64,000 nt of DNA from Candidatus Uhrbacteria bacterium (GCA_016188475.1 JACPHT010000006.1:2330-66329); one strand, 5' to 3'; positions 38,911 to 59,205 are shown, counted from the stretch's first letter. A program made the numbers and translations. Notes: generated by a model from the letters alone, not told the origin.

Positions 38911-38937
38911 ACAGCCTTCGACTGGCTCAGGCAATAA
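38911..38937. repeat. intergenic palindromic element family 1 (IPE-1), half-site copy
   Basis: ACAGCCTTCGACTGGCTCAGGCAATAA, the reverse complement of the TTATTGCCTGAGCC(T/A)GTCGAAGGCTGT consensus. Confidence 0.6.
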
Positions 38938-38975
38938 CTTTACCGAAGTCGAAAGATCTCGTATATAATGACAAT

Positions 38976-40541
38976 GTGCTCAAACGACTTATAATTTTTT
39001 TATTTTTTGTTGCAGTTCCGTTTGTCACTTCTGCAGCCGAAGAAGCAGAGTTTTTGTCTCCAAAAATTTCAGGAGTTAACTCATCTGTTGTTTGCCCGAC
39101 TGAAGATAATTGTCAGGCGGTTTTTTTAATCAAGGGGAAAAATTTTCTAAACAGCAACGGAAGACCGCTTGTGAACATTGCAGACGAATGGGTTGAAGTT
39201 GTGCGAGCTTCAGATACACAAATTGTTGCGCTTGCTGAACCTGAATTTGTTGGCAAGGTTCCGATGGTTATTGTTGATAAAACATTGCATCGTCCGACAA
39301 TGTCATCAACGGACGGCGTACTAGTAAAAATGTTCGACGAGTCAGTTGATGTAGCGCTTGAAGTGATTGGTCAAACATCAGACGGTTCACGATATATCAC
39401 AGCCGGGCCTCGTTACACAGAACCGCTTCGAGTTTATTATCGCGATAGTTACTGGACTTCTGGAATGATTCTTCTTATCGAGCCGGCGGTTGTTCGCGAT
39501 CAAATTTTGTTGCTTGCGCGAGGAATTGAAAAAGATGGTTCAACACCAAGCGCGATTCCGGTTGATCCAAAAGGAATGACAATGCCGCTTTGGAAAGATC
39601 ATTACGATTCTGGTCCATATTTCATCATGATGGTTTATGATTATGTGAGATGGACCGGTGACACATCAATTCTGGATGAACATGTTGGTGAAAGAACAAT
39701 TCTTGCGACAATGGAAGATGTGCTGTCACATCTTGAAACTCGTGATACAAATAAAAACCTTTTGCCTGAAAAGCCGGCAAATTCATTTCAAGATTGGCTT
39801 GATAATGTTCCGCGTGGTGGGGAAGTGTTGTATGACGAAGTTTTGTATTATCGAGCGCTTCGAAACATGACAGAGCTGGCCGAGTTGGTTGGCAAAACCG
39901 CTCATGCAACAGTTTTTCATCGTCACTCGCTTCTTGTTAGATATCAAATCAACAACACTCTTTGGAATGACGCGAGGGGATATTATTATGAACGTTGCGA
40001 AAATGGAAAATGCGAAGACCGTTTGACAAACGAAATGTCGCTTGCTGTTTTGTATGACGTTGTTTGGCCTGAAAATCGAGAACGTTTGCTAAAAAATTTG
40101 GAGCAGTTGGAAACGAGATATAATTCAAGTTTACTTTATGGTGATTGGGGGGTTGTAAATGTTTTTCCCGCTTACACTTCAACAAAAGCATATTTTTATC
40201 AAAACATGACTGACTGGCCGTTTTTGGACGGTATAAACGCTGGAGCAAGATTGAAATATGGAATCGGCGATTGGTATTATCCGATGACAAATTGGTGGAA
40301 GTTTTTTAATGTTCACAGCGACAAAATTGAAAAGTTGCCGGAGTATGTTTCGCCGATTGATTTTTCAGGTGGAGTTTCTCAAGCATGGTCAGTAAATCCG
40401 ATTGTTTCGTTTGTTCGCTATGGACTTGGAATTGATCCAGCAATAGACGGAACATACACGATTCGACCATCTCCGATCGGTCAGGTTGATTTGAAAAATT
40501 TATCTGTTCGCGGACAAAGAATTTCAGTGAGCGCGAAATAG
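38976..40541 (+). CDS. secreted six-hairpin glycoside-hydrolase-like protein (GH63/GDE/trehalase-like)
   Basis: Signal peptide and N-terminal Ig-like region. Family assignment is by general composition only and is weak. Confidence 0.4.
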   Translation: MLKRLIIFLFFVAVPFVTSAAEEAEFLSPKISGVNSSVVCPTEDNCQAVFLIKGKNFLNSNGRPLVNIADEWVEVVRASDTQIVALAEPEFVGKVPMVIVDKTLHRPTMSSTDGVLVKMFDESVDVALEVIGQTSDGSRYITAGPRYTEPLRVYYRDSYWTSGMILLIEPAVVRDQILLLARGIEKDGSTPSAIPVDPKGMTMPLWKDHYDSGPYFIMMVYDYVRWTGDTSILDEHVGERTILATMEDVLSHLETRDTNKNLLPEKPANSFQDWLDNVPRGGEVLYDEVLYYRALRNMTELAELVGKTAHATVFHRHSLLVRYQINNTLWNDARGYYYERCENGKCEDRLTNEMSLAVLYDVVWPENRERLLKNLEQLETRYNSSLLYGDWGVVNVFPAYTSTKAYFYQNMTDWPFLDGINAGARLKYGIGDWYYPMTNWWKFFNVHSDKIEKLPEYVSPIDFSGGVSQAWSVNPIVSFVRYGLGIDPAIDGTYTIRPSPIGQVDLKNLSVRGQRISVSAK

Positions 40542-40645
40542 TTATTGCCTGAGCCTGCTTGCCGACCATAGCCTCTGGCGAAGGTTGGTCGAAGGCTGTA
40601 ACGCATTGTGAATAGTTATTGCCTGAGCTTGTCGAAGGCCGTACG
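40541..40645. repeat. IPE-1, two tandem copies
   Basis: GTTATTGCCTGAGCCTG...GTCGAAGGCTGTAA at 40541-40599, then AGTTATTGCCTGAGCTTGTCGAAGGCCGTA at 40614-40645. Confidence 0.65.
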
Positions 40646-40657
40646 AACTAATAAAAA

Positions 40658-40688
40658 ACGACTGCCTATTTGGCAGCCGCTTTTTTTA
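40658..40688 (+). terminator. rho-independent terminator (cgactgcc-tattt-ggcagccg + T7)
   Basis: Imperfect stem followed by a T-run, downstream of the glycosidase-like gene. Confidence 0.4.
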
Positions 40689-40837
40689 TACGAATCGCTT
40701 TTTGCTTTCGATTGCTAGCGAGTTGAATCTTTCGATCCTTTTTCCATTGTGTGCGAACTTGTTTTCTTTTGCCTGGCATAGAGTAAAAAAGTGATGAAGT
40801 GATGGAGTAAAGGAGTTAGTTTGTAGCCCACGGCTTT

Positions 40838-40886
40838 TCCGGCCTAAAGGCTGGATCCGGCTCCGCCGGAAGCCGTGGCTGTGTGA
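40838..40886. repeat. intergenic palindromic element family 2 (IPE-2: CCGGCCTAAAGGCCGGATCCGGCTCCGCCGGAA)
   Basis: cacggcttttccggcctaaaggctggatccggctccgccggaagccgtg. Related copies at 46751-46790 and 57571-57607. Confidence 0.55.
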
Positions 40887-40972
40887 AAAGATAATACTTG
40901 ATCGTTCGCTTACCGTCAAATTTAGCAAAAAGATAAGTCAATTTTATATTATTTCTCTGCTCAAATCAACAA

Positions 40973-41130
40973 TTGATCGTCCGTTTCCTCCGTTCGTCGA
41001 CATTCGCAGACGGCCAGTATAGACGTTTGGTAATCATCATCGTTTCTCGCCGTCGAGAAATAAGCCGCCGACGCTTACGTTGGTTTTCATCAACGTCCAC
41101 GGCGGCGGTCAAGAACGGAGGAACCGGACG
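40973..41130. repeat. ~160-nt highly structured element at the edge of GC-rich island A, containing a conserved 75-nt motif
   Basis: Outer arms gatcgtccgtttcctccgttc (40973-40993) and gaacggaggaaccggacgatc (41110-41130) are reverse complements with one mismatch. Inner hairpins tttctcgccgtcgagaaa and gccgccgacg...cgtccacggcggcgg. The core at 41049-41120 recurs at 54955-55030. Confidence 0.5.
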
Positions 41131-41191
41131 ATCATAAATAAAATGAACCTCCGCTGACAGTGTGTCAGACAGAGGTTCGAGAGCGACAGGG

Positions 41192-41479
41192 CTACTCAGC
41201 GAGTTTTGCGTCGTAGCCAGGACAACTGGCGTTCCGGTGGTAGATCGAGTCACACCACTCATTGTGTTCGGCGAGCTGTTTCGCTAGCACCTCGGGCGGG
41301 ACGATCACTTGTCCGTGCTTCGGACATCCCACGTTCTGGTGGTAGATCTGGTCACACCACGCCAGATGGGACACCTCGTCCAACTCTTCGTCAGTCGGGG
41401 TTGTCGAAATCTTTCCACACGCGAGAACCACGACCAGCACCATCAGAAGTGCCAGGACAAGATTCATCATTCCCTTCAT
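41192..41479 (-). CDS. small Cys-rich lipoprotein with an internal duplication (GC-rich island A)
   Basis: Lipobox LVVVLAC. Duplicated WCDQIYHQNVGCP / WCDSIYHRNASCP. Confidence 0.4.
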   Translation of the reverse strand: MKGMMNLVLALLMVLVVVLACGKISTTPTDEELDEVSHLAWCDQIYHQNVGCPKHGQVIVPPEVLAKQLAEHNEWCDSIYHRNASCPGYDAKLAE

Positions 41480-41595
41480 CTTTTGGCCCTCCTTTTGAGC
41501 CTAACTTACCGTCAAATAGTACCACATTTTAGCACTTTTGTCAAGGATTTGAAAGAAAAAACTCTCCGCACAAAAGTATTGTTTGGAGAGCGAGA

Positions 41596-42978
41596 TTATT
41601 CATCGGATACTGGAAAGATCGTTGAAAGCATGATTATTGTCTGCCGGAGATTTTCCGGAGGTACGTTTGCGAATTCAGCGATGGCATTTATGAAAAGAGC
41701 ACGATATTCCGACGGTATTTGCACGATAGATGCCGCGACTTTGAGCGTTGAAGCCACCCATGGGTATTCGTCAGTTACCAGCCGTATGTCGCTCTGACCA
41801 ATCTCTTGACCCGACACACTTGTGGCATCTGCACCATCATCATCCACTTCAACGTCAGTCTCGGCTTCGGACCCAGTTTCGAATTCTGTCTCCTCGTTCT
41901 CTTCGTCGCCATCTGGTGCTGGCTTGGCTTGATCGCCAGCTTCGCCGTCTTGGGTGTTGTGGGTTTCGTCCTCTTTCGGTCTTATCCTCTTTTCATTAGG
42001 ACCATATTCACTCATGTCTCTGGTCCACTTGTTCCCTGCGATCAGGCCTTCGTCAACCATACTTTTGAATAACTGCCGTGCGTAGAATGGAGTGCTTACA
42101 CCTATAATTTTTGCAAGTTCTCCTGCATCATTGAGGTCAAACTCGTATTTGAGTTTCTCTTCCGTTGTATCCCCGGGAGTGTTCTTCCATGCTGTACCAA
42201 GCCGTGTCCAATATCCAGAACGATGGACTGTTGCATTTTGTGAATCCCTTTTTTTATCTTTTCTTTCTGTTGGTGCTGGTGGTGCACTAGCCTCTGATCT
42301 TAAAAGGTCTATCGCCTTTTGCAGTAGCTTGTAGCGGGTCTCGCCGCCATCGCTCGTGCGCTCAAACCAACCTCTTCTGGAAGCATTATTCAAACGATAG
42401 ATTGCATCGATCCGTGTGGTCACTTTTTCAGAATTTGAGTTGATAATCCTAGCGATGACTCGTTCTTCTTCGGCCCAACCTGCTTCATCAGCGCATTTCT
42501 TTATTGCCGAGGCCAGCTCAATTTGCACAGCATTGGATTTTTCTCTCATGTTCGGTTCCCCTTTCCCCAGTTTAGACGGTTGTTCATCCGGTTGAGTATT
42601 TTCATTTGGTGGATCATCAACTGGCGGTGTTTCTTCATCTGGCTCTGATCCGGATTCTTGTTCAGACGCTGGCTCTTGAGCTGGTTCTGATTCTTGCGTT
42701 TGTTCATGCGCTCGCTCTGGAGGTGGCGGCGGCGTAGGTTTGCGCTTTACCGAAGGCGAGGCTTCTTCCGACATCTCGTCAAGTCCATCTGCTGAAATTG
42801 CAAACTCGATTCTATTACGTCTGCCTTGCGGACAACGCCAGCACGCCGTTCTGCGTTTTTCAAATGCATTGGCATCACAGTAATCATCAATGCATTTTTG
42901 CATAGATTGCTGTTTTCTTCTCGCTCTACAATAGAAATTGTTCTCAAGAACGCTTGGCCCGTCTGGCACGGTCTGCAT
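41596..42978 (-). CDS. hypothetical protein with N-terminal Cys cluster, acidic Pro-rich linkers and two wHTH-like regions (GC-rich island A)
   Basis: CIDDYCDANAFEKRRTACWRC (CxxxC...CxxC) and a long D/E/P-rich low-complexity stretch. No recognised family. Confidence 0.45.
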   Translation of the reverse strand: MQTVPDGPSVLENNFYCRARRKQQSMQKCIDDYCDANAFEKRRTACWRCPQGRRNRIEFAISADGLDEMSEEASPSVKRKPTPPPPPERAHEQTQESEPAQEPASEQESGSEPDEETPPVDDPPNENTQPDEQPSKLGKGEPNMREKSNAVQIELASAIKKCADEAGWAEEERVIARIINSNSEKVTTRIDAIYRLNNASRRGWFERTSDGGETRYKLLQKAIDLLRSEASAPPAPTERKDKKRDSQNATVHRSGYWTRLGTAWKNTPGDTTEEKLKYEFDLNDAGELAKIIGVSTPFYARQLFKSMVDEGLIAGNKWTRDMSEYGPNEKRIRPKEDETHNTQDGEAGDQAKPAPDGDEENEETEFETGSEAETDVEVDDDGADATSVSGQEIGQSDIRLVTDEYPWVASTLKVAASIVQIPSEYRALFINAIAEFANVPPENLRQTIIMLSTIFPVSDE

Positions 42979-43096: not shown

Positions 43097-43546
43097 GTGC
43101 TATACTTTCCTTGTATGTTTGATATTGCCAGTCTTCTTTTTTCAGATTCAAGCGTAGTTTTGTTTGGCGCCACACTTTTTGTATTCGGCGCCATACTTTG
43201 TTTAACGCTTTTGCTTAAACAAAATCCAAAACCAGTTCGAACGCTTATTGTTCTTCTTATAATTTTGTTTTTTCTTTTGCTTGGAATGGTAAGTTTGGAT
43301 TTGTTCGGAAGACGCACAGTGTATGCGTTTGAAAATTACGCGTCGTTTTCAGAACTTTTATCAACTCATCGCTTGCTTATTATTCAGCTTCCGTTTGTTT
43401 TGATCGTAAGCTCTATCGTTACATTGATCGTGTACGGCGAAAAAATTGCAAACGATCACGCGAAGGAATATCGCTATGCAATTATTGCTTCTGTTTGGAT
43501 CACGTTTTTAACGTTTTTGTTAATCGGTCTTGAATCAATGTTATAA
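43097..43546 (+). CDS. integral membrane protein
   Basis: Four hydrophobic helices. Confidence 0.4.
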   Translation: MLYFPCMFDIASLLFSDSSVVLFGATLFVFGAILCLTLLLKQNPKPVRTLIVLLIILFFLLLGMVSLDLFGRRTVYAFENYASFSELLSTHRLLIIQLPFVLIVSSIVTLIVYGEKIANDHAKEYRYAIIASVWITFLTFLLIGLESML

Positions 43547-43551
43547 AAATC

Positions 43552-43615
43552 GTTATTGCCTGAGCCTGTCGAAGGCTGTATTCAATTTTATCCATTCGAT
43601 GAGCTCACGGAATAA
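43552..43615. repeat. IPE-1 copy (imperfect palindrome)
   Basis: GTTATTGCCTGAGCCTGTCGAAGGCTGTA, followed by the degenerate inverted half CCATTCGATGAGCTCACGGAATAA. Confidence 0.65.
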
Positions 43616-43626: not shown

Positions 43627-43983
43627 ATGAAACTTTTTGAACGATTTCGAAATCGAATTCACGAGTCAATCGCGCTTGGTGCGTTCATGTCCGCGGCTCT
43701 GACTTTACAAATCGCTTGGATCAGCAATCTTCTTGTTCATCGAAGTGAAACCGTACGCGATCTTTTTAACATTTTGCCTTCCATTGGTCCTATCTCTGGA
43801 TTATATTTCAAAACAATTATCGCATACGTATTTTTATTCGGTTTGTCAGTTTTATTTTTCAAAGGCCGCGATTGTTCTGTTTGGCGCGGTCGAGTTTTTG
43901 GATTTTTTTATATCTCCATCGTCATGTTTTTTGTACTAACGATGCCGGTTGTTTACGAATTTTCAGTGAGTGTTAGCGAATAG
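43627..43983 (+). CDS. integral membrane protein
   Basis: Three hydrophobic helices. Confidence 0.4.
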   Translation: MKLFERFRNRIHESIALGAFMSAALTLQIAWISNLLVHRSETVRDLFNILPSIGPISGLYFKTIIAYVFLFGLSVLFFKGRDCSVWRGRVFGFFYISIVMFFVLTMPVVYEFSVSVSE

Positions 43984-44079: not shown

Positions 44080-45543
44080 ATGGATATTTCAGTTAAAAAA
44101 GGGAAAATTTTTGAACAAATTTGCGATGTTTTGATTCTTTTCATTTTTCAGGGTTCAGAGCATTCAGACGATTTCATTTCAACAGTTCTTAAAGAGGAAA
44201 AGTTCAAAGGCAAACTTTGCCAGTCTGTTTTAATTCGAACCGATGGTAAACTTCCAGCAAAACGAGTTTTGGTTGTTGGACTTGGAAAAAAAGAAGAGTT
44301 TGATCTTCAAGCTTTGCGACGCGCTTCTGCTGCTGCATATTTGACTGCAAAAGCGATTGAACCAAAAACAATAGCATTAGAGTTTTTTAGCGCGCCAAAT
44401 TTTAACGCAAAACAAGTTGCACAAGCGGTTGTTGAAAGCATCCGTCTTTCTGATTACAGTTTTACAAAATACAAAAAAGAAAATGGAAACGGAAAAAATA
44501 AAACGCAAAGTTTTGTTTTTGTTACAGACGATGGACGAATACTTCGACAAGCACAGCAAGGAATTGAACACGGAGAACTTGCGGCGCGCGCAACAATTTT
44601 TACACGCGATCTTGTTAACACTCCAGCGCAAGATATGCGTCCGATTGATCTTGTTGAATCTGCAAAATCAATCGCAAAAGGGAATGGCGCGATTCGTGTT
44701 CGTGTGTTTGATAAAGCTCAACTTGAAAAAATGGGAGCTGGAGGAATTTTGGGAATTGCAAAAGGCTCTGATGATCCGCCGTATTTAGTTCATTTAACAT
44801 ATCGTCCAAAGAAAAAAACAAAAAAGAAAATTGCGATTGTTGGAAAGGGAATAACGTTTGACTCTGGTGGTTTGTCTCTCAAACCAGCAGCCAGCATGTT
44901 TACAATGAAAATTGACATGGCAGGCGCGGCTGATGTTTTAGGTTTGTTTTCCGTGATAGATGAGATCGCGCCAGCAGTAGAAGTTCATGGAATTTTTGCC
45001 GCAGTTGAACACATGCCGTCAGGGTGCGCTGTTCGTCCTGGTGATATTTTGCGCGCTATGAACGGAAAAACAATGGAGATATTAAATACAGACGCGGAAG
45101 GTCGCGTGATTTTGGCTGATTCGCTTTTGTATGCTGTTAAACAAAAACCAGACATGATTATTGATCTAGCTACTTTGACTGGCGCTTGCATGGTTGCGCT
45201 TGGAGATGAAATTACAGGTGTTTTATCAAACGACGCAAAACTCGCGAATCGTGTTTTGACTGCCGCGGCTGGAGCCGAAGAAAAAATGTGGGAACTTCCT
45301 CTTGAAAAAAATTACAAACAATTTTTAAAATCAGATGTTGCTGATTTGAAAAATATCGGTGGAAAGTATGGAGATGTTATTTCAGCCGGTTTGTTTTTAG
45401 AAGAGTTTGTGAATAAAACTCCTTGGGCACATTTGGATATTGCTGGTCCATGTTTTGCAGAACGTGATTTTGATGAATATACAAAAAAAGGCGCGACCGG
45501 TCACGGTGTACGCACCTTGATTGAATTTTTGAAAGCGTTCTAG
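44080..45543 (+). CDS. pepA: leucyl aminopeptidase (M17 family)
   Basis: VGKGITFDSGG and NTDAEGRV(IL)ADSL signature motifs. Start set at MDISV. Confidence 0.85.
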   Translation: MDISVKKGKIFEQICDVLILFIFQGSEHSDDFISTVLKEEKFKGKLCQSVLIRTDGKLPAKRVLVVGLGKKEEFDLQALRRASAAAYLTAKAIEPKTIALEFFSAPNFNAKQVAQAVVESIRLSDYSFTKYKKENGNGKNKTQSFVFVTDDGRILRQAQQGIEHGELAARATIFTRDLVNTPAQDMRPIDLVESAKSIAKGNGAIRVRVFDKAQLEKMGAGGILGIAKGSDDPPYLVHLTYRPKKKTKKKIAIVGKGITFDSGGLSLKPAASMFTMKIDMAGAADVLGLFSVIDEIAPAVEVHGIFAAVEHMPSGCAVRPGDILRAMNGKTMEILNTDAEGRVILADSLLYAVKQKPDMIIDLATLTGACMVALGDEITGVLSNDAKLANRVLTAAAGAEEKMWELPLEKNYKQFLKSDVADLKNIGGKYGDVISAGLFLEEFVNKTPWAHLDIAGPCFAERDFDEYTKKGATGHGVRTLIEFLKAF

Positions 45544-46073
45544 TCATTTTGACTTTTTCCGAGTGTTTTTTCTCCGGCTTTCCATTCCAAAGGACATCGT
45601 TCGCCTGTTTGAAGTGCCTGAAGTACACGAAGTGTTTCAGTTACTGATCGTCCAATTCCAGGGTCTTGATACAACGCATATCGCAAAATACAGTCAGGAT
45701 CAATAATGAAAGTTCCGCGAAGGGCAATGCCATTGTCTTCCAGTAAAACTCCATAGTCGCGCGAAATCGTTCGAGTGATATCCGAAAAAAGTGGATATTT
45801 CAACTCACCCAAATCTTTGAGCCATGCTTTGTGTGAATAAACAGAGTCTGTTGATCCGCCAAGCACATCAGCGTTCAATTGTTTGAATTCGTCGTATCGC
45901 GCAGAAAAGCCAGTGATTTCTGTTGGACACACGAACGTGAAATCAAGCGGATAGAAAAATAAAACCAGCCATTTGTTTTTGTAATCATTCGAGCCAACTT
46001 TGATAAATTCTCCGTTGCCGCTGACAGCTTCAGCTTGAAAATGTGGCGCGACTTTTCCGATAAAATTATTCAT
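45540..46073 (-). CDS. peroxiredoxin (2-Cys Prx/AhpC-like)
   Basis: FTFVCPTEI peroxidatic-Cys motif. 177 aa. Confidence 0.85.
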   Translation of the reverse strand: MNNFIGKVAPHFQAEAVSGNGEFIKVGSNDYKNKWLVLFFYPLDFTFVCPTEITGFSARYDEFKQLNADVLGGSTDSVYSHKAWLKDLGELKYPLFSDITRTISRDYGVLLEDNGIALRGTFIIDPDCILRYALYQDPGIGRSVTETLRVLQALQTGERCPLEWKAGEKTLGKSQND

Positions 46074-46693
46074 AATGATATATTTTTGACTTTTTCAAAA
46101 ATTTGATTCGCCATATCCCAATTAAAGTTTTTCCAAAAGTCTGCGATGTAAGCCGCGCGATCTGAACCGTAATCAATAAAATAAGCGTGTTCGTAAACGT
46201 CCAACACGATAATCGGGATGCATCCCCATATTCCTCCTTGGTTGTGCGCGTCAGCTCCGTAGATTTTCAGTCGTCCAATGTGAGTATCCCACGCAAGAAC
46301 AACCCAGCCTCGCATTGCCATGCCAGTTGCTGAAAATATCGTCGTGAATTTTCCAAGCGATCCGTATTTTTCAACGATCGCATCAACAAGAACACCTTTC
46401 GCTTCGCCTGTTCCACCAAGTCCATCAAAATAATGTTCATGCAGATAAACCCCGTTTGTCGCAAAAGTTTCTCCGTCTTTCAAACCTCGTAATTGAGAGT
46501 ATGTTTGATTCGCTGTTTCCAATCCTGTCCCAGACGCGATCATTTCTTTCAATTGCTCCGCGATCTCTTTCATTTTTTTCACATATCCGACATAAAGCTT
46601 GTCATGATGAATTTCAATTGTCTTTTTTGAAATCCCGGTTAAATCTTTTGTAAAAGGAAGCGGCTTTGGTTCGTATTGTGTTTGGGAAGGCAT
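46070..46693 (-). CDS. Fe/Mn superoxide dismutase
   Basis: HHDKLYVGY and DVYEHAYFIDY motifs. Start set at MPSQTQ; the longer track ORF extends into the repeat region. Confidence 0.85.
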   Translation of the reverse strand: MPSQTQYEPKPLPFTKDLTGISKKTIEIHHDKLYVGYVKKMKEIAEQLKEMIASGTGLETANQTYSQLRGLKDGETFATNGVYLHEHYFDGLGGTGEAKGVLVDAIVEKYGSLGKFTTIFSATGMAMRGWVVLAWDTHIGRLKIYGADAHNQGGIWGCIPIIVLDVYEHAYFIDYGSDRAAYIADFWKNFNWDMANQIFEKVKNISL

Positions 46694-46705
46694 AAATCGA
46701 AAACA

Positions 46706-46966
46706 AGAAGTTAGAGAAGTTAAAGAAGCTGAAGAAGTTGTAGTGGAAGTCTTTTCCAGCCTAAAGGCCGGATCCGGCTCTGCCGGAAACCTTTCAGAAT
46801 AAGGAAATGGAAAAAATTGTTGACAACTTTTCACAGGGGTGAAAAAACGTCAACACTTCAGACCGAGCTTCAACTTTATATGTCGCTATGTTGTAGAAGA
46901 AGGTTTTTCCTTGTAAAAGTTAGAGAAGTTAGAGAAGCTGGAGAAGTTAGAGAAGCTGGAGAGGCT
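46706..46966. repeat. repeat-rich intergenic region: tandem AGTTAGAGAAGCT-like 13-mers flanking an IPE-2 copy
   Basis: aagaagttagagaagttaaagaagctgaagaagttg at 46706-46745. IPE-2 at 46751-46790. agttagagaagttagagaagctggagaagttagagaagctggagagg at 46916-46965. Confidence 0.5.
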
Positions 46967-47008
46967 TGTGGTAGCTGTCTGAATCCTACGGTACAATAAT
47001 AACACTTT

Positions 47009-47943: not shown

Positions 47944-48618
47944 ATGCCCACCCTCTACATTGTCGCAACACCAATTGGAAATTTGAAAGACTTAAGCGAG
48001 CGTGCGAAAACCATACTTGCTTCTGTTCACACTGTCTTGTGTGAAGACACGCGAGTTACAAGTAAACTTTTTAAAACCATTGGATCGAAACCAAAACTTT
48101 TGTCGTTCCATCAACATTCAGACAATACAAAAACGAATATAGTGATAAAACTCCTTGAGCAAGGCAACGATCTCGCACTCGTCACAGATGCTGGAACACC
48201 AGGAATTTCAGATCCGGGTGGAAAATTGATCGAGACGCTTGTTAAACATTTTGGTTCAGAGCTCACGATCGTGCCGATTCCAGGGCCAAGCGCTGTTATC
48301 GCGGCTTTGTCAGTAAGCGGTTTTCCAACTGATGAATTTATTTTCCTCGGATTTCCTCCAAACAAAAAAGGAAGACAAAATTTTTTTGATCGACTTTCTG
48401 AATACGAAATAACGATTGTGTTTTATGAAAGTACACATCGCATTTTGAAAACACTCGACGAAATTAAAAAACGTTTTCCAAATTGTCAGCTTGTTGTTTG
48501 TCGTGAATTAACAAAAGTGTACGAGACTATATATCGCGGAACAGCCATTGAAGTGACAGAAAAGTTAAAAGCAAGTAGTATTAAAGGCGAATTTGTAATA
48601 GTCATCTCGAATCATTGA
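47944..48618 (+). CDS. rsmI: 16S rRNA (cytidine1402-2'-O)-methyltransferase RsmI
   Basis: LYIVATPIGNLKDLS...VLCEDTR...GTPGISDPG (tetrapyrrole-methylase fold, RsmI pattern). Confidence 0.8.
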   Translation: MPTLYIVATPIGNLKDLSERAKTILASVHTVLCEDTRVTSKLFKTIGSKPKLLSFHQHSDNTKTNIVIKLLEQGNDLALVTDAGTPGISDPGGKLIETLVKHFGSELTIVPIPGPSAVIAALSVSGFPTDEFIFLGFPPNKKGRQNFFDRLSEYEITIVFYESTHRILKTLDEIKKRFPNCQLVVCRELTKVYETIYRGTAIEVTEKLKASSIKGEFVIVISNH

Positions 48619-48620: not shown

Positions 48621-48685
48621 AATATTCCCTGAGCCTGTCGAAGGAATAAAATTTATTACTGCCTTCGACTAGCTCAGGCAATAAA
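48621..48685. repeat. IPE-1 copy (hairpin)
   Basis: ATTCCCTGAGCCTGTCGAAGG at 48624-48644 pairs with GCCTTCGACTAGCTCAGGCAATAA at 48661-48684. Confidence 0.65.
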
Positions 48686-48690: not shown

Positions 48691-50136
48691 ATGAACCGAT
48701 TTTATATCTCAACAGCCATTCCATACGTAAACGCTGATCCGCACATAGGTTTTGCGCTTGAAATTATTTTAACTGATGCAGTAGCGCGTTATTATCGTCA
48801 CAAACTTGGCGCCGAAAATGTTTTTGCGCTGACTGGAACAGATGAAAACAGTTTGAAAAATGTTCGTGCCGCTGAAGACGCCAACGAAGATGTCGCATCT
48901 TATGTTGAACGTTATGCCAACGAGTTTCGATCTTTGAAAGACATACTTGATCTTTCTTTTAATGATTTCATTCGAACTCACGAAGAACGTCACATTCACG
49001 GCGCTCAAAAACTTTGGAGCGCGTGCAAACCAGAAGATATCTACAAAAAAATGTATCGCGGTTTGTATTGTGTCGGATGTGAAACTTTTTACACGGATAA
49101 AGAAGTTCCAGATGAAATTTGTCCTGAACACAAAAAACCTCTCGAGGTAGTTGAAGAAGAAAATTATTTTTTCAAACTTTCAAATTATCAAGATCAACTC
49201 ATTGAACTGATTGAAAAGGGAGATTTACGTATTGTTCCAGAATCAAGAAAAAATGAAGTTTTGAGTTTTATCAAACAAGGTCTTGAAGATTTTTCGATTT
49301 CTCGTTCGCAAGAACGCGCGAAGCATTGGGGCGTCACAGTTCCAAACGATGAATCTCAAGTGATGTATGTTTGGTTTGACGCGCTTTCAAATTACATAAC
49401 AGCGCTTGGTTATGCAGACGACACTGAAACCTACAAAAAGTTTTGGATAGAAAACGATCATCGTGCGCACGTGATTGGAAAAGGAATTTTGCGTTTTCAC
49501 GCTGTGTATTGGCCAGCGATTTTATTGTCCGCTGGAGTTCCTCTGCCAAACGAACTTTTTGTTCATGGCTACATAACAGTTGAAGGTGAAAAAATGTCAA
49601 AGTCGCTTGGGAACACAATCCATCCAAAAGCTCTTGTAGATGAATTTGGAACAGACGCTGTGCGATATTATTTTCTTCGTGAAATTCCTTCACATGGTGA
49701 CGGAGATTATTCAAAAGCTCGTATGGAAGAACGTTATGGCGAACTTGCAAATCAGCTTGGAAATTTGGTTGGACGTGTCGCGACAATGGCTGTTAAGTAT
49801 TTCAACGGACAACTTGATGACACAAACAAAGATTGGTCAGCGAAAGAAACTGCGCTTGATACACACATGAAGAATTATGATTTGCGATCATATATAGATG
49901 AAGTGTTTGAGGTTGTATCAGACGCGAATGAACTAACGGACAAAAAATCACCATTCAAATTAGTGAAGGAAGATTCAGCATCCGCGAAAGCGGTTTTGTC
50001 AGAGCTCGCTGATATGATTCGATTTATTGCTCGATCACTTTTGCCAATAATTCCACACAGTGCAGAGGAAATTCTCCGCAGATATGGTAAAGTAATAGAG
50101 GTTGGTGAGCCTTTATTTCCGCGAAGAGATAAATAG
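48691..50136 (+). CDS. metG: methionine--tRNA ligase
   Basis: HIGH-type motif (PHIGFALE), Zn knuckle CVGCETFY...CPEH, KMSKS. Confidence 0.9.
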   Translation: MNRFYISTAIPYVNADPHIGFALEIILTDAVARYYRHKLGAENVFALTGTDENSLKNVRAAEDANEDVASYVERYANEFRSLKDILDLSFNDFIRTHEERHIHGAQKLWSACKPEDIYKKMYRGLYCVGCETFYTDKEVPDEICPEHKKPLEVVEEENYFFKLSNYQDQLIELIEKGDLRIVPESRKNEVLSFIKQGLEDFSISRSQERAKHWGVTVPNDESQVMYVWFDALSNYITALGYADDTETYKKFWIENDHRAHVIGKGILRFHAVYWPAILLSAGVPLPNELFVHGYITVEGEKMSKSLGNTIHPKALVDEFGTDAVRYYFLREIPSHGDGDYSKARMEERYGELANQLGNLVGRVATMAVKYFNGQLDDTNKDWSAKETALDTHMKNYDLRSYIDEVFEVVSDANELTDKKSPFKLVKEDSASAKAVLSELADMIRFIARSLLPIIPHSAEEILRRYGKVIEVGEPLFPRRDK

Positions 50137-52869: not shown

Positions 52870-54411
52870 ATGGAACGAAAGCAATTGTTGCTTCAGGAAT
52901 CTGGTTTGATCGTCAAGGGCGGTGGTGCTACGAAACCGCCGACCGCGGCATCAAAGGGCGAAATCGCACAGCCGTCTCGTTTCACCCAGATGCTCGCGAT
53001 CTGGGGCGAGCTCATTGATATCGCGGTTCTGACAGACAACAGGCGTCGTGTTCCGATCGAAGTGCGCAAGCGCGAAATGACGCGTCGATTCGTCCGCGAT
53101 CCGCGCGATCCGCAAGTTCCTCTTCTCGTTAAAGCGATGATCTTCGCTGAAAACGTGACTCGATTCAATCGGGAAACCAAGGAGCATGAACTTCAACCCG
53201 GCATTGGACTCGGGTACAAGGCAGAGATTCAGGTTTCTGTCAACAAAGGAAGTGACGAGACAGTCAAGGCTGTTCCGCACATTCTCGTTGACGGAGCCGG
53301 CGGAATGATTCCGTACGGCACATTCGAGGAGTCTGGTGGAAAGACGGTCGTGAACGCGCGCGAACATTTTTGCATGGTTCTGTGGCCAATGAAGAAAGGT
53401 CAGCCGTTCAGACTCCTGCCGCTCGGTCTCGCGTCTGCTTCACGGCTCGATATGTGGAACCGCGTGGCACAGGGTCTTCCAGGCCGCGGTCTTCCGACAA
53501 TCGAGCCAATCCGCCATAACCTTCTTGCCAAGGACGGTGCTCGCTACCTCGTGTACACGCCGCCAGGAATGTGGCAGTTCGATGGCGAAGAAGGCAAGGC
53601 GAGCTACCACTACGGCCACATCTGTGGCCAGACAGCTCGCGTTATCGAAAAGGGCGGATTTCCGCCGTATGACGACGAAGAAAACTGCACGTTCTCCGAA
53701 CAGAGAGTGTTTCTCGTTGAGCTTGGCGAGCGTTCGATCGGCCTGCAATACGTGGGTCGGAAGGGCAAGGTCAAGCTTCTCGAAGGTACTATCGATCTCG
53801 GTCAATCTCTCGCGGTTGAACCGTTCGAAGCGCTCGGAGTGTCGGTTCTCACAGCCAATCCGAGCAAGCAGTCCCGAACAGCTTTCGAGCTGGCAGGGCG
53901 TGGTGCGTTCACCCTGGACAATCCGCTCTTCGCCTACGCCGTCAGGATAGGACTGGTTGATCCAGTTGTGCTCGAAGATACACAGTCTGTACGTTCTTCA
54001 CTCAATCGGCTTGCGAGTCTCGTTGTTTCAACTCTTCGCGATCAGCTCGATGACATCAAACGGCGAGTTGTGGAACAGCTCTGTCGTGATCTGCTCCCGG
54101 ATTCTGAAATCGTTCTGGATGGCAAGTCGGCCGAAGAAGTTTGGCACCGCAATGGCGGCGAAGATTTCCTCGCAAAATGGATCAACGAGCGGATCGAAGG
54201 CGACTTCGACTGGAGCTCGTGGGTTCACCGCGGAGTTCGGATGGAGCTCCTGAAGAGAATCTCCGAACGCGCTCAGAATGTCGGAACTCCTCCCGCTCTT
54301 CCTGTGACCTTTGTCAATGCGGCTCCTATCGTAGCAGAAGTTCTTGGCCTGGTACCCACGCCAGCCAAGCGCATTCGCAAGCCTCGCGCTTCGAAGCCGG
54401 CACAGGCCTAG
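52870..54411 (+). CDS. hypothetical protein (GC-rich island B), 513 aa
   Basis: Long ORF at about 57% GC. No recognised family. Followed by the hairpin gtagtgatttctttcactac. Confidence 0.45.
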   Translation: MERKQLLLQESGLIVKGGGATKPPTAASKGEIAQPSRFTQMLAIWGELIDIAVLTDNRRRVPIEVRKREMTRRFVRDPRDPQVPLLVKAMIFAENVTRFNRETKEHELQPGIGLGYKAEIQVSVNKGSDETVKAVPHILVDGAGGMIPYGTFEESGGKTVVNAREHFCMVLWPMKKGQPFRLLPLGLASASRLDMWNRVAQGLPGRGLPTIEPIRHNLLAKDGARYLVYTPPGMWQFDGEEGKASYHYGHICGQTARVIEKGGFPPYDDEENCTFSEQRVFLVELGERSIGLQYVGRKGKVKLLEGTIDLGQSLAVEPFEALGVSVLTANPSKQSRTAFELAGRGAFTLDNPLFAYAVRIGLVDPVVLEDTQSVRSSLNRLASLVVSTLRDQLDDIKRRVVEQLCRDLLPDSEIVLDGKSAEEVWHRNGGEDFLAKWINERIEGDFDWSSWVHRGVRMELLKRISERAQNVGTPPALPVTFVNAAPIVAEVLGLVPTPAKRIRKPRASKPAQA

Positions 54412-54494: not shown

Positions 54495-54572
54495 TATTAT
54501 TGCCTGAGCCTGTCGAAGACTGTAGGCAAACAAGCCAAATTTTACCCATTCGACAGGCTCAGGGAATAAAAT
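54495..54572. repeat. IPE-1 copy (long hairpin)
   Basis: TATTATTGCCTGAGCCTGTCGAAGACTGTAGGC pairs with CCCATTCGACAGGCTCAGGGAATAAAA. Confidence 0.65.
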
Positions 54573-54954
54573 TTGGCTTTTGTAAGCCTCTCGCTACCAG
54601 GTAGCGAGAAGATATATTCTAATTCACCAATCACACAATTTTTTTTAGAAACAACAGATATTCGTAATCTATTATATGAGCAGTTGCATCATGTTGGAAG
54701 GAGTCGAGGAGGAGTAAAGAAGCCAACTGCTTGGCTTCGTACCTCCGAGACGGGTTGGACGATGTCTGGCTGAAAGCCAGACCGTACAACACCTACGGCG
54801 AAGAGTCCGTTGGCCCGGAGACACGGTTCGATTGTCATATACTCGTCAACCAGTCTGTTGGTTCCATATTCAAATCACATATAAAATTGTTTAGACTCTC
54901 TGTTCGCCGACATCCGGAGCCGACCTGTACAAACACTTGTTAACTACGTCGATT

Positions 54955-55030
54955 CACGTCGGCGAGGACTAAGCCGCCGCCACTAACTCTGGTTGTCATA
55001 AACGTCCACGGCGGCGGTCAAGAACAGATA
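54955..55030. repeat. conserved structured 75-nt motif (second copy), at the right edge of GC-rich island B
   Basis: cgtcggcgaggactaaGCCGCCGCC...aaACGTCCACGGCGGCGGTCAAGAAC. The 3' arm is identical to 41092-41117; the 5' arm differs. Confidence 0.5.
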
Positions 55031-55149: not shown

Positions 55150-55398
55150 ATGAAAGATATCGACGCGGCCTATCATCGTTTGGCCTACAAAATTTTTGCT
55201 GAATTTACTGGAACAATCGCTGTACCAGCTGTTCTTGCGGCACTTTTGGGCAAATGGCTTGATGAAAGATATGGAACAGAGCCGCGATACATAATTCTGC
55301 TTCTCGCATTCGCGTTTTTTTCTTCCGCAGTTATCATATTCAAAAAAGCGAAAAAATATCGAGATGAATACGTGTCAATAATTAAAAAAGATGTATGA
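55150..55398 (+). CDS. AtpZ/AtpI-like small membrane protein preceding the ATP synthase operon
   Basis: 82 aa with two TM segments. Stop overlaps the atpB start (ATGA). Confidence 0.45.
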   Translation: MKDIDAAYHRLAYKIFAEFTGTIAVPAVLAALLGKWLDERYGTEPRYIILLLAFAFFSSAVIIFKKAKKYRDEYVSIIKKDV

Positions 55399-56225
55399 GC
55401 CTTGTACTTCCTCCAGTTGCGGCTGAACAAGTTTTTCAAATCGGATCGTTTCCAATCACAAATTCCATTATCAACGGATGGATTGCTGTACTCTTTTTCG
55501 TTATATTAGCTTTTCTTGTTCGCAATCGCAGTGCGCTTGTTCCAAAAGGTTTACAAAATATAGTTGAGGGGACAGTTGAATTTTTACTTAAAGAAGTTGA
55601 AAAAGTCACAGGAGATAAAATAAGAGCCAGAAAATTTTTGCCAATCGTTGGAACTATTTTTTTGTTTATTCTTTTTTCAAATTGGATCGGGCTTTTGCCA
55701 GGGACTGGATCAATCGGAGTATGGGGTGAGATACACGGTGAAACAGAATTGATTCCACTTTTGCGACCGGCTTCAAGCGACTTGAACCTAACACTCGCAA
55801 TGGCGCTTTTTGCAATCATCACATCGCATGTGATGGCGCTTATTACTGTTGGACCTGTCAATCACATCAGTAAATTTGTGAACGTACGAGGAATTATCCG
55901 ATCAATTAAACATGGACCAATGGCGATAGTTGTTGCAGTGATAGAATTTGGTGTTGGATTGATTGAGATTGTAAGTGAGATTGCAAAAGTGGTTTCACTA
56001 TCTCTTCGTTTGTTTGGAAACATTTTTGCTGGCGAAGTTTTGATTACTGTTATGCTTGGACTGCTTGCTTATATATTGCCAATTCCGTTTATGTTCTTGG
56101 AGTTGCTTGTTGGAGCTGTTCAGGCTACAGTCTTTGCCATGTTGACTCTTGCGTATCTGGTTGTTGCAACAGATGAACACGGACATGAAGAATCTGGCGA
56201 ACATGTTGAACCAGCGCACGCTTAA
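55395..56225 (+). CDS. atpB: F0F1 ATP synthase subunit a
   Basis: Five TM segments. Conserved LSLRLFGNIFAGE motif with the essential Arg. Confidence 0.85.
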   Translation: MSLVLPPVAAEQVFQIGSFPITNSIINGWIAVLFFVILAFLVRNRSALVPKGLQNIVEGTVEFLLKEVEKVTGDKIRARKFLPIVGTIFLFILFSNWIGLLPGTGSIGVWGEIHGETELIPLLRPASSDLNLTLAMALFAIITSHVMALITVGPVNHISKFVNVRGIIRSIKHGPMAIVVAVIEFGVGLIEIVSEIAKVVSLSLRLFGNIFAGEVLITVMLGLLAYILPIPFMFLELLVGAVQATVFAMLTLAYLVVATDEHGHEESGEHVEPAHA

Positions 56226-56236
56226 TAAATAATTAA

Positions 56237-56476
<240 letters not shown>

Positions 56477-56516
56477 ATAATGCAGAACAGAAAACGGTAG
56501 CTTGTTATTAAAAATA

Positions 56517-56591
56517 ATTACCCGAACTAATCGAAGGCTGTAATAGAAATTGATAATCAATTTATCCCTTCGATAGGCTCAGGGGATAAAA
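56517..56591. repeat. IPE-1 copy (degenerate) between atpE and atpF
   Basis: ATTACCCGAACTAATCGAAGGCTGTAAT ... TCCCTTCGATAGGCTCAGGGGATAAAA. Confidence 0.55.
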
Positions 56592-56630
56592 TATGTGAAA
56601 TTAACAAGCTACTACTTTTTTTCTTCATAT

Positions 56631-57191
56631 ATGTCTGAAACAAATCTAACAACCGAGCTTGCAAATGGAACCATCAAAACTGTTGAAGCAACTGGCGGTA
56701 TTGGAATGCTTGGAATCAATTTGAAAATTTTTATTGCGCAACTTATCAACTTTGTTGTTGTTCTTCTTGTGCTTTGGAAATGGGTTTACAAACCTTTCGT
56801 AAAACTTCTTGACGATCGTTCATCTAGAATTGAAAAAAGTGTGAAGCAAACGCAGGAGATTGAAGAACGTCTTGCAAAAAGTGAAAAGGAACAAAAACAA
56901 ATTCTTGTTCAAGCGCGCGCAGAAGCCGCCTCTGTTTTGGAACAAGCGCGAACTGATGCGGAGAATAGAAAAAAAGAGCTGATCGATTCGGCAAAACAAG
57001 AAGTTCAACGAGTTGTCGCTCAAGGGAAAGAACAATTGAAAGTTGAAAAAGTCACAATGATAAAAGAAGCAAAATCAGAAATCGTTGAAATCGCGATCAC
57101 TGCGGCAGAGAAAATTTTGAAAGAATCGGTTGATCAAAAATCGTCGCAAAAGTTTGCTCAAGAAGTAGTTGATAAGATAGACAAAGTATGA
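56631..57191 (+). CDS. atpF: F0F1 ATP synthase subunit b
   Basis: N-terminal TM segment then a long charged coiled coil. Start set at MSETNL. Confidence 0.8.
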   Translation: MSETNLTTELANGTIKTVEATGGIGMLGINLKIFIAQLINFVVVLLVLWKWVYKPFVKLLDDRSSRIEKSVKQTQEIEERLAKSEKEQKQILVQARAEAASVLEQARTDAENRKKELIDSAKQEVQRVVAQGKEQLKVEKVTMIKEAKSEIVEIAITAAEKILKESVDQKSSQKFAQEVVDKIDKV

Positions 57192-57571
57192 AATTCACAG
57201 ATAAACAATTAGCAAAAGTTTTATTCGACATCGTTGAAAAAGGAAATAAAAAAGATCTGAGCGTAATTACAGATGAATTTGTGAAATTTTTAGCAGAGCG
57301 AGCCGAACTTCACAGAATGTCCGGAGTGATCCAATCTTTTGAAAAAATTTGGAAGGAACAATATGGCGCGGCAACAATTACAGTTGAAAGCGCACATCCA
57401 TTATCGACGTCATTAAAAAAACGAGTTGAAGAAATCGCTCAAGGCGCGGAGATTCGTGAAATAGTAAATGAGAAATTAATCGGCGGAGCAAAAATTAGAC
57501 TGGATGATCGAGCTGTTGATGGTTCAATATCCGGACAGTTACAAAGATTGAAAAATTTTATATCCGCATAG
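57188..57571 (+). CDS. atpH: F0F1 ATP synthase subunit delta (short form)
   Basis: Sits between atpF and atpA. 127 aa; OSCP-like C-terminus (GGAKIRLDDRAVDGSISGQL). Confidence 0.65.
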   Translation: MKFTDKQLAKVLFDIVEKGNKKDLSVITDEFVKFLAERAELHRMSGVIQSFEKIWKEQYGAATITVESAHPLSTSLKKRVEEIAQGAEIREIVNEKLIGGAKIRLDDRAVDGSISGQLQRLKNFISA

Positions 57572-57607
57572 GTAAATCCTTCGACTCTCCGGCTTTAGGC
57601 CGGATCG
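57571..57607. repeat. hybrid IPE-1/IPE-2 palindromic element between atpH and atpA
   Basis: ccttcgactctccggctttaggccggatcgctcagg. Confidence 0.5.
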
Positions 57608-57613
57608 CTCAGG

Positions 57614-59140
57614 ATGACAACAAAGAATAAATATATGTCAACAAAATCAGAGATCATTGACGCGCTAAAAAAATCACTCGAACAGTTTCACGCTTCAGCA
57701 AAAGAGGAACAAGTCGGAACTGTGATAGCTGTTGGAGATGGCACTGCTCGCATGACAGGTCTTGAAAAAGCTCAAGCATCTGAAATGTTGGAATTTCCAA
57801 ACGGAGTTTTTGGAGTCGTACTTAACTTGGAAGAAGACAGTGTTGGAGCGGTTATTCTAGGTGACGCGTCAAAAATCAAAGAAGGCGACACGGTGAAAAC
57901 AACCGGACGCATTTTGTCTATTCCGGTTTCTGAAAACGTTCTTGGTCGCGTAATTGATCCACTTGGAAATCCAAAAGATGGAAAAGGCAAAATCGAAGCT
58001 CGTGAATTTTTCCCAATTGAAAAAGTTGCGCCAGGTGTAATGACTCGAAAATCCGTCGGTGTTCCACTTCAAACAGGAATCAAAGCGATTGACTCAATGA
58101 TTCCAATTGGCCGCGGACAACGCGAACTTATTATTGGAGATCGTCAAACTGGAAAAACCGCGATTGCTGTTGATACAATCATCAATCAAAAAGGGCAAAA
58201 CGTGAAATGTATTTACGTTGCTATTGGACAAAAAGAATCCAAGGTTGCAAAAATTGTCGCAAAACTTGAAGAAGCTGGCGCAATGGAATACACGACTGTT
58301 GTTGTGGCAGGTGCTTCTGATCCAGCATCGCTTTCTTACATCGCTCCGTTTTCTGGTTGTACAATCGGAGAATTTTTCATGGCAAAAGGTGAGGATGCTC
58401 TTGTGATTTACGATGACCTTTCAAAACAAGCTTGGGCGTATCGTGAAATTTCTTTGCTTCTTCGCCGACCGCCGGGTCGCGAAGCGTATCCGGGAGACGT
58501 TTTTTATCTTCACTCGCGTTTGCTTGAACGCGCCGCTCGTTTGAGTCCAGAAAACGGAGGAGGTTCACTCACTGCTCTTCCAATTATTGAAACTCAAGCC
58601 GGTGATGTTTCAGCTTATATTCCAACAAACGTTATTTCAATCACAGACGGTCAGATTTATCTTGAAAGCGATTTGTTTTATCGCGGAATTCGTCCGGCTT
58701 TGAACGTTGGCTTGTCAGTCTCGCGCGTTGGCTCATCTGCGCAAACAAAAGCAATGAAAAAAGTTGCAGGAAAATTGCGTTTGGATCTGGCGCAGTTTCG
58801 CGAGCTTGAAGCGTTCGCGCAATTTGCGACTGACCTCGATCCGCAAACTCGAGCACAAATCGAGCGCGGACGTCGCACAACTGAAATTTTGAAACAAAGA
58901 CAATATCAGCCAATTCCATTTGAAGAACAGGTTGCGATTATCTTTGCCGTTATCAATGGATTTTTGGATGAAGTGCCAGTTGATCAAGTTGTGAAATGGG
59001 AAATGGAGTTTCGTTCATATATGTTGTCGTCAGGCGCAGTAACTCTCAAAAAACTTCAGGACGAAAAAGCGATCAGTGACGAAATCGAGGCTCTGCTCAA
59101 AAAAGATATTACAAATTTTAATCAGACGTTTAAAGGTTAG
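57614..59140 (+). CDS. atpA: F0F1 ATP synthase subunit alpha
   Basis: Walker A GDRQTGKT and many conserved blocks. Confidence 0.95.
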
Positions 59141-59205
59141 ATATTCCCTGAGCGGAGACCAAATATTTCTTCGACAGGCTCAGTAAATATTTGGTCGTAG
59201 TCGAA
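59141..59205. repeat. IPE-1 copy between atpA and atpG
   Basis: ATATTCCCTGAGCGG...CTTCGACAGGCTCAGTAAATA... Confidence 0.55.

Follow-up and report, generated by a model that had tools for sequence, protein, structure and literature searches.

Repetitive extragenic palindromes (REPs) and similar repeats are abundant in bacteria. Together with the REP-associated tyrosine transposase (RAYT), REPs and REP doublets forming hairpins (REPINs) are reportedly known as 'REPtrons', and to our knowledge only the GTAG class of REP-like repeats has a known enzyme, namely RAYT. REPIN-RAYT systems are lineage-specific and vertically inherited, and high-copy REP 16-mers are tied only to RAYT groups 2 and 3 (PMC5581495). 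The CGTC-tagged REP superfamily, which includes Neisseria dRS3 and Rickettsia RPE-4/6, apparently has no dedicated transposase (Di Nocera et al. 2013, PMC3733652). Among small nucleases, YhbQ, YazA and the structure-selective Slx1 are grouped as one family (reviewed in PMC7017083), and small COG2827 genes, encoding bacterial UPF0213 proteins, are without assigned function (PMC1839093). Here we describe a family of intergenic hairpin repeats in a stretch of 64,000 nucleotides (nt) from a Candidatus Uhrbacteria bacterium (GCA_016188475.1, JACPHT010000006.1:2330-66329), hereafter the window; homologues of its AtpA assign the host to Candidatus Uhrbacteria, within the Patescibacteria or candidate phyla radiation (CPR). 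In related contigs, units of this family enclose a small GIY-YIG nuclease gene.

From sequence comparison, the window copies are probably non-autonomous members of a GIY-YIG-associated hairpin-repeat mobile system, of the same kind as REPINs or MITEs (miniature transposable elements bounded by inverted repeats). We read them in this way because a nuclease gene bounded by dispersed repeats is the arrangement that defines RAYT-REP systems. The present system differs from those in its enzyme fold and in its conserved feature, which is the irregular junction where two free helices meet.

A dispersed family of intergenic hairpin units

A sequence-only reading of the window had proposed a dispersed, intergenic palindromic family of the REP, REPIN or MITE kind, and this description holds. 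With up to three mismatches, the core CCTGAGCCTGTCGAAGG has nine matches in the window, all between 38,915 and 59,184, against a chance level of 0.05 from shuffles (nine matches were reached in 0 of 100). A covariance model of the single unit (6-bp stem and 13-nt loop) detected 11 units at E<0.02, all within 38.9-59.2 kb, and none in 1-38.9 kb or 59.2-64 kb of the window; three long forms were missed because a second helix interrupts their core. This gives at least 14 hairpin units at nine intergenic sites. One further model hit (44537-44561, E=0.04) was rejected as an element, being coding sequence of an M17 peptidase. The same sites were also returned by a repeat finder as direct and inverted families (D14, D17, D18, I2, I5-I7, I13, I19, I20 and I25). 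By gene calls, every copy in the window is intergenic, and the three copies that had been placed inside the atp operon (atpE/atpF, atpH/atpA and atpA/atpG) were confirmed there by the Pfam-annotated genes of an identical Logan contig.

Each unit consists of a variable stem closing a conserved TGAGC-(2-4 nt)-TCGAA segment, and the core that is conserved reads Y-GAGC-(2-4 nt or extra helix)-GUCGA-R. Single units, inverted doublets and units nested one within another are all found. Two stem types are present in the window, A (TTATTGCC/GGCTGTAA; unit sequence TTATTGCCTGAGCCTGTCGAAGGCTGTAA) and B (TTATYCC/GGRATAAA), and all four window doublets (at 43552, 48621, 54495 and 56517) combine one A unit with one inverted B unit. 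They fold as long hairpins, far stabler than shuffled sequence (z -2.4 to -8.8), and the paired inverted half that had been described is real in them, as seen from both folding and arm complementarity. In long forms, a helix takes the place of the two central nucleotides, as in CC-TGA-GCGA[stem]GAG-TCGAA-GG at 57576-57615, so that TGA...TCGAA is retained around arbitrary helices, and the inner helix may itself bear an inverted unit (38890-38957 and 59141-59209). The family extends past the window: a pattern specific to the window's A arms retrieves 14 metagenome contigs from several sites, with 37 units over their 102 kb. The full element in related contigs is a palindrome of ~125 nt. Across all loci, 72 '+-' and 39 '-+' pairs have their two units within 120 nt of each other.

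Some loci outside the window show unusual arrangements. Tandem arrays with identical 'spacers' (L164 ~4560-4800, L245 2959-3120, L046 5482-5684 and L125 89-153, with periods of ~54, 45, 70 and 24 nt) superficially resemble CRISPR arrays, without spacer diversity. One viral contig (L005, IMGVR_UViG_2767802479_000002) carries 12 long forms, all from a single alphaproteobacterial subfamily (atccTGAGGTGCCCG...CGGGCCTCGAAggat), within 13.7 kb of a phage- or gene transfer agent (GTA)-like head gene cluster, and one short-form core inside a different common palindrome (ccttctccccgc...gcggggagaagg).

A GIY-YIG nuclease gene between units

In two contigs of the Uhrbacteria lineage (L250 and L252), an 88-amino-acid (aa) open reading frame (ORF) with a GIY-YIG domain (PF01541) is bounded exactly by an A-type unit on one side and an inverted A unit on the other, the latter identical to the window unit at 43552. 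An orthologue from another sample (L260, 91% identical) has two units upstream and one downstream, and the ORF-carrying form in L250 and L260 (unit, 88-aa ORF, inverted unit) measures ~0.4 kb. A second Uhrbacteria-lineage homologue (L248, 35% identical) has variant units on both flanks. In Sungbacteria (L261-266), arrays of short and long units surround two tandem GIY-YIG genes, and in another CPR lineage (L300-308) the gene is flanked by units with a compensated C...G core change. Among Alphaproteobacteria, one homologue, which happened to lie in a motif locus (L202), has full doublets on its flanks, and three further homologues, selected by protein similarity alone from 3,111 clusters (L278-281, L282-289 and L290), are all flanked by long-form units or doublets; in L290, the TGA stop codon of the GIY-YIG gene is the TGA of the downstream unit. 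Eight independent lineages from CPR and Alphaproteobacteria, with crude gene calls in the fetched loci, therefore carry a GIY-YIG gene of 90-110 aa with units on both sides. For comparison, 243 kb of DNA from the Uhrbacteria lineage contains 239 genes, of which three are bounded by units at each end; the GIY-YIG gene accounts for two of these, which leaves a background rate for other genes of at most 1/237. As a control, nine homologues on phage contigs (36-46% identical) have no units. Searching viral contigs for the gene with single proteins gave no match.

The flanked ORFs match PF01541, and their best solved structures are the UPF0213 entries 1ZG2 and 1YWL (E=3e-10); no NCBIfam model matched them. 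In the open-access literature subset searched, no paper links GIY-YIG genes to bacterial hairpin repeats.

The earlier suggestion that a RAYT mobilises the copies was not borne out. A classical REP/REPIN family served by a RAYT encoded elsewhere in the genome would likewise consist of short intergenic imperfect palindromes, often in inverted doublets and polymorphic between relatives. However, the GTAG/GTGG head is missing: window units start with TTATTGCC or TTATYCC, and elsewhere the flanks are ccgttcgY, TGTC or CCTC. A tblastn search with unverified query sequences of IS200 TnpA and E. coli RAYT over ~2.4 Mb and ~300 loci, including the window and the 243 kb of Uhrbacteria-lineage DNA, found nothing adjacent to any copy and gave one marginal, non-adjacent hit. 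Nor did clustering of the 5,062 ORFs that lie no more than 2.5 kb from a motif give a transposase cluster. Head genes of phages or GTAs made up the top clusters, owing to the IMG/VR source of the loci, and the GIY-YIG genes were missed by the clustering because they are short and divergent. The flanked position is occupied by a different nuclease gene, and many phyla have the core in common, whereas REPIN-RAYT systems keep to single lineages with vertical inheritance (PMC5581495). Taken together, a hidden RAYT appears very improbable.

Gain and loss between close relatives

In L256, a relative with 98% identity in AtpA, the covariance model gave no hit over the whole 21.5 kb. Its TP_methylase and MetRS genes overlap where the window has the 48621 doublet, its atpH-atpA gap is 3 nt where the window has the 57576 element, its atpA/atpG spacer is short and without a unit where the window has the 59141 element, and there is also no hit at the position of the window's 54495 element. 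Two relatives at 87% identity (L257 and L258) have no units, and one at 86% (L259) carries units between atpD and atpC, a gap that is free of them in the window. In a 1.4-kb contig (L251, 86% identical) orthologous to window positions 5061-5379, an extra segment spanning 144-1155, corresponding to window 5212/5213, lies between divergent genes that are adjacent in the window and contains an extra 299-aa gene (weak serpin match) and an A/B doublet.

In keeping with the REP- or MITE-like reading, copies are polymorphic between close relatives, and they are not fixed regulatory sites. Judged from these alignments, the window copies have been gained or lost between close relatives and are most simply explained as recent insertions in the window's lineage, which would mean that even streamlined CPR genomes tolerate recent insertions within the ATP synthase operon. 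The sequence-only reading had also considered a role as mRNA stabiliser or attenuator; since L256 has no element at the same junctions, any such role cannot be essential. Insertion of a bare core into pre-existing palindromes was rejected for the window: the empty sites of L256 hold no palindrome, and the entire hairpin, stems included, is new at the filled sites, so that the core was not merely dropped into existing palindromes.

The same observation bears on whether the repeats spread without the nuclease, by host replication and repair (fold-back priming, slippage or palindrome recombination) or by some other enzyme, with the GIY-YIG genes being homing cassettes that land in hairpins. The outer arms of full-length elements vary among copies and stay complementary within each copy. 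Partial duplications (e.g. GTCGAAGGGTCGAAGG), truncated and nested copies and tandem arrays with periods of 21-70 nt are common, and the duplications and arrays resemble slippage products. GIY-YIG enzymes are classic homing endonucleases, and one of them adjoins the window's group I intron. Insertion into REP sequences is known for IS110-family elements (PMC12288879). Against this explanation stand the appearance of a whole hairpin, with its stems, at filled sites, the unit arrays that alternate with tandem GIY-YIG genes, and the recurrence of the same protein family with lineage-matched unit variants, one of them with a compensated core change, which points to co-evolution. We consider this explanation unlikely.

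A core shared across phyla under structural constraint

Scans of sequence collections were seeded with one exact 17-mer, and the figures on its spread rest on the matches listed. The 17-mer was found at at least 120 loci in IMG/VR and at least 120 in the GTDB genome set. Among the matches listed are Chloroflexota, Actinomycetota, Cyanobacteria, Bacteroidota, Ignavibacteria, Calditrichota, Alpha-, Beta-, Gamma- and Deltaproteobacteria, Acidobacteriota, Eremiobacterota, Planctomycetota, Latescibacterota, Zixibacteria, Spirochaetes and CPR, with an identical 17-25-mer in more than 12 phyla. The titled loci include isolates of Pedobacter, Novosphingobium, Microbacterium and Sphingobium, and the 25-mer TCATCCTGAGCCTGTCGAAGGATGA is identical in genomes of 33% to 69% G+C. 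The family was not found in cultured phage genomes and is missing from the annotation of the megaplasmids that carry it. Searches of the open-access literature for the core (13-17-mers on both strands, as RNA or DNA, and as translated peptides) returned no paper. Rfam 15, applied at gathering and permissive thresholds to the window and eight other loci, gave only sub-threshold matches to microRNA-like long hairpins and no match overlapping any described bacterial family.

The stems are conserved in structure and vary in sequence. In 74 of 80 titled genome loci, the stem extends to at least 3 bp, that is, to the third closing pair at least. At 464 TGAGC-N2-4-TCGAA sites in 2.07 Mb of fetched DNA, the closing pairs vary widely (CC/GG, GC/GC, GG/CC, CA/TG, AT/AT and others). 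Covariation was tested on 137 hits picked irrespective of what flanks them: pairing is 88-91% at the three closing positions, which use CG, GC, UA and AU and show many double-sided changes, with a covariation score of 0.593 against 0.244 after shuffling (equalled in 0 of 500 shuffles) and of at most 0.20 in every slid register. Core positions 1 and 13 also covary (T-A 365, C-G 44, each other combination at most 4), and therefore the invariant part is Y-GAGC...GUCGA-R. YGAR is read on either strand of this junction and is the preferred context of tandem sheared G.A pairs, and from its sequence we infer that the core forms a Y-R pair and two sheared G.A pairs, followed by a 1-2-nt pyrimidine bulge into the second helix.

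RNA or DNA element

An irregular conserved core between freely covarying helices, one of them optional or variable in length, is the usual signature of a functional RNA. A cis-acting structured RNA, with a K-turn-like tandem-G.A loop bound by a protein and setting intercistronic mRNA processing, stability or coupling, could account for this signature, spread being secondary. Copies that fit exactly between stop and start codons in operons, and doublets that fold far better than shuffled sequence (z down to -8.8), would also agree with it. Orientation does not: relative to flanking genes the units lie 41:19 with crude gene calls and 24 antisense to 21 sense with strict calls based on G+C at third codon positions, and since the first ratio drops to the second under strict calls the strand bias is not robust. 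Both orientations to transcription are likewise found among the window's doublets (3:1). The tandem G.A pairs are impossible on the reverse strand. In addition, unit positions vary among related phage-like operons, the relative with 98% identical AtpA has no element at the same junctions, tandem, truncated and nested copies are common, and Rfam 15 has no match. We therefore hold a dedicated regulatory RNA to be improbable.

The asymmetry of G.U and A.C pairs in the stems, which would choose the folding strand, showed no consistent signal. A Shine-Dalgarno role (GAAGG upstream of start codons) was rejected for want of any spacing preference. The lack of a robust strand bias, the occurrence of both doublet orders, the variable positions, the arrays and nesting and the presence or absence of copies between relatives together favour a DNA-level element over a dedicated cis-regulatory RNA. 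Copies that are transcribed must nevertheless form strong hairpins.

Proposed mechanism

For a GIY-YIG-associated mobile system, the following steps may be proposed. A structure-selective GIY-YIG nuclease would recognise and nick the irregular junction on folded single-stranded or cruciform DNA, and nicking would start the copying or movement of unit-bounded DNA. Doublets without an ORF, such as those of the window, would be moved in trans by a nuclease gene copy elsewhere in the genome, probably the orthologue of P0121 (88 aa). Where copies are transcribed, they would add stable intercistronic hairpins, three of them in the atp operon, which may alter mRNA decay or translational coupling; the copies themselves are dispensable.

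Several observations weigh against this proposal. Insertion at new, non-homologous sites is not accounted for by a nuclease by itself and may follow a homing-type or repair-templated route, and the GIY-YIG gene could be a passenger homing into hairpins and not the mobiliser. Neither a target-site duplication nor an exact element boundary is definable at ~10% divergence from the relative. The window contains no UPF0213-type GIY-YIG gene, so that the link rests on related contigs; its own GIY-YIG ORF (7150-7473) is part of a group I intron and has no units. Eleven GIY-YIG lineages were sampled, the first four of which came from motif-selected loci, and among the motif-bearing phyla the gene check spans CPR and Alphaproteobacteria. 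In Peribacteraceae, Daviesbacteria and Sphingobium (L236), the gene has only a degenerate unit or other palindromes beside it.

In the Sphingobium locus (Sphingobium sp. sgz301304, L236 3150-3800), the GIY-YIG homologue is flanked by different GC-rich palindromes (GTCGCCCCGGGCTTGACCCGGGGC / GCCCCGGCTCAAGGCCGGGGCGAC), a hint that nucleases of this family may also be paired with other families of hairpins.

Individual copies in the window

The first site holds a two-level nested element (38890-38957, +) between the stop codon of ORF 38251-38868 and the start of a glycoside-hydrolase-like gene (38976-40541). Its outer long form, ATCT-TGA-GCGAAGG[...]CCGAAG-TCGAA-AGAT, encloses an inverted A unit (38909-38941, -; model hit 38911-38935, E=6e-6); in a paralogue from L246, both helices show compensatory changes. 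The 'half copy' described at 38911-38937 is in fact the inner unit of this nested hairpin. The second site is a long-form A unit (40542-40601, +) that begins 1 nt past the stop codon of gene 38976-40541, TTATTGCC-TGA-GCCTG[CTTGCCGACC..GGTTGG]-TCGAA-GGCTGTAA; the copy previously placed at 40541-40599 is real, and its corrected limits are those of this complete unit with its extra inner hairpin. The third site is a single A unit (40614-40645, +; model hit 40618-40642, E=3e-6).

Three doublets lie between these copies and the operon. The one at 43552-43615, with an A unit (+, 43555-43579) and a B unit (-, 43589-43613), fills the gap between ORFs 43097-43546 and 43627-43983. The doublet at 48621-48685 has the opposite order, B (+, 48624-48648) and then A (-, 48658-48682), with z=-6 to -8, and separates the genes for TP_methylase (47944-48618) and MetRS (48691-50136). 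The doublet at 54495-54580 (z=-8.8), which lies downstream of gene 52870-54411 and precedes the atp operon, comprises an A unit (+, 54499-54523) and a B unit (-, 54543-54567) and has an outer arm, GCCAAATTT/AAATTTGGC.

Inside the operon, the atpE/atpF doublet (56514-56591) consists of a degenerate A unit (+, 56517-56541, E=0.012) and a B unit (-, 56563-56587, E=4e-5). The atpH/atpA junction carries a long-form unit (57576-57615, -), which in minus-strand reading is ATCC-TGA-GCGA[TCCGGCC..GGCCGGA]GAG-TCGAA-GGAT; what had been called a 'hybrid copy' at 57571-57607 is this complete unit. Between atpA and atpG, a long-form unit (59141-59209, +), CCC-TGA-GCGGAG[ACCAAATATT...AATATTTGGT]CGTAG-TCGAA-GGG, has an inverted short unit (59164-59188, -, E=5e-5) as the tip of its inner helix. 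The copy previously placed at 59141-59205 is this unit with its enclosed inverted one. Given the long-form and nested architecture, the supposed half and hybrid copies are complete variants.

Other features of the window

A group I intron (Rfam RF00028, 83 bits) is located at 7410-7733 on the + strand, and the GIY-YIG ORF at 7150-7473 (107 aa, weak match to a group I intron endonuclease family) runs into its 5' end; the window was found to contain neither tRNA nor rRNA genes. A 5-kb block (7782-13142) is enclosed by a pair of 190-nt arms (7782-7971 and 12953-13142) with 99% complementarity. Its products are a T5orf172 protein, an adenine methylase of EcoRI type, a GmrSD-N/HNH nuclease and two proteins without assignment, and its G+C is down to 34%, so that in appearance it resembles a mobile defence island. 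At 22478-33000 there is a very long coding region made of units of ~330-336 nt (~110 aa) in more than 10 repeats with 60-90% identity, whose first 790-aa ORF has no Pfam match.

A second, unrelated set of non-coding repeats includes the 29-nt ACGGCGAAGAGTCCGTTGGCCCGGAGACA, inverted at 54795-54823 and 63242-63270 (97%) and conserved upstream of the atp operon in L256, and an 80-nt direct repeat (41040-41119 and 54949-55028, 83%) is also present. Upstream of atpI, 580 nt are untranslated, an unusual length in a CPR genome. Repeats of 9 nt (AGAAGTTAG/AGAAGCTGG) form two clusters, ~200 nt apart, at 46697-46973, at the junction of ORFs 46070-46834 (-) and 46817-46999 (+).

Comparison with known systems

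A hammerhead ribozyme was rejected, as the core is YGAGC...GUCGAR with two helices only and gave no Rfam hit even at E<=10. The Penelope-like elements that carry such ribozymes superficially recall the present family, in which a GIY-YIG gene adjoins a CUGA...GAA core set between two helices, but the CUGANGA...GAAA core, the third helix and the reverse transcriptase are all missing. The sequence permits tandem G.A pairs beside a 1-2-nt bulge, smaller than the 3-nt bulge of a canonical kink-turn, a fold that the core may or may not adopt. The conserved positions do not fit integron attC sites, mimicry of the tRNA-Asp anticodon arm, LexA- or parS-type sites or primase sites.

In common with MITEs, one unit type is found both in forms that carry an ORF (L250/L260) and in doublets that lack one, and full-length copies are palindromes of ~125 nt with inverted outer arms. 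Unlike MITEs, the family has no DDE or other known transposase, and its outer arms vary between copies; no target-site duplication can be defined at ~10% divergence. The likeness to Slx1, YhbQ and YazA (URI-type GIY-YIG) lies in the PF01541 and UPF0213 structure matches of the flanked ORFs. It does not extend to the repeats: E. coli, which has yhbQ, lacks the family in all 5,426 genomes searched, and phage homologues are not unit-flanked.

The CGTC-tagged REPs (Di Nocera et al. 2013, PMC3733652) are mostly alphaproteobacterial yet present in several phyla, mostly form head-to-head dimers and have no dedicated transposase known, all of which applies here as well. Many copies outside the window are also preceded by TGTC, CCTC or GCTC, with a stem starting in AT, and TGTC-ATCC or CCTC-ATCC heads are frequent there. 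In contrast, the CGTC REPs have an 8-9-bp stem, a 4-5-nt loop and a CCA tail, whereas the present units have a structured core of 11-13 nt or a second helix, and the window copies are without the tag. The core strings of the present family do not occur in the text or supplements of that paper, and the family may or may not coincide with one of the CGTC families.

REP/REPIN-RAYT systems are matched in several respects. Both have short (20-40 nt) intergenic imperfect palindromes in many local copies, inverted doublets that fold into a longer hairpin (four in the window) and a single small nuclease-type gene flanked by repeats, the ORF-less copies presumably being moved in trans. The flanked gene, however, is a GIY-YIG gene (UPF0213/Slx1-like) here and a Y1 HUH transposase there. 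The GTAG head is absent, the internal-loop core is conserved here and the stem there, and the core is cross-phylum here and lineage-specific there; the present units also nest recursively.

A cross-phylum hairpin core and a small GIY-YIG nuclease (UPF0213/COG2827) make a concrete candidate enzyme-substrate pair, of an 88-aa protein and a 29-nt oligonucleotide. If the wider proposal given below is true, the UPF0213 family gains a function, and the missing enzyme would be supplied for REP families said to lack a dedicated transposase. Annotation would improve with the family recognised, as we take these sequences, when translated, to account for recurrent junk ORFs in high-GC genomes (e.g. ...PFVLSLSK... 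and ...FDKLRANG...). A wider proposal, which we put forward as a tentative possibility, is an unrecognised class of selfish element, analogous to the 'REPtron': a ~90-aa Slx1/YhbQ-like GIY-YIG nuclease in a hairpin-bounded element of ~0.4 kb, which would recognise a tandem-G.A junction in folded DNA and spread itself and ORF-less doublets, from CPR to Proteobacteria.

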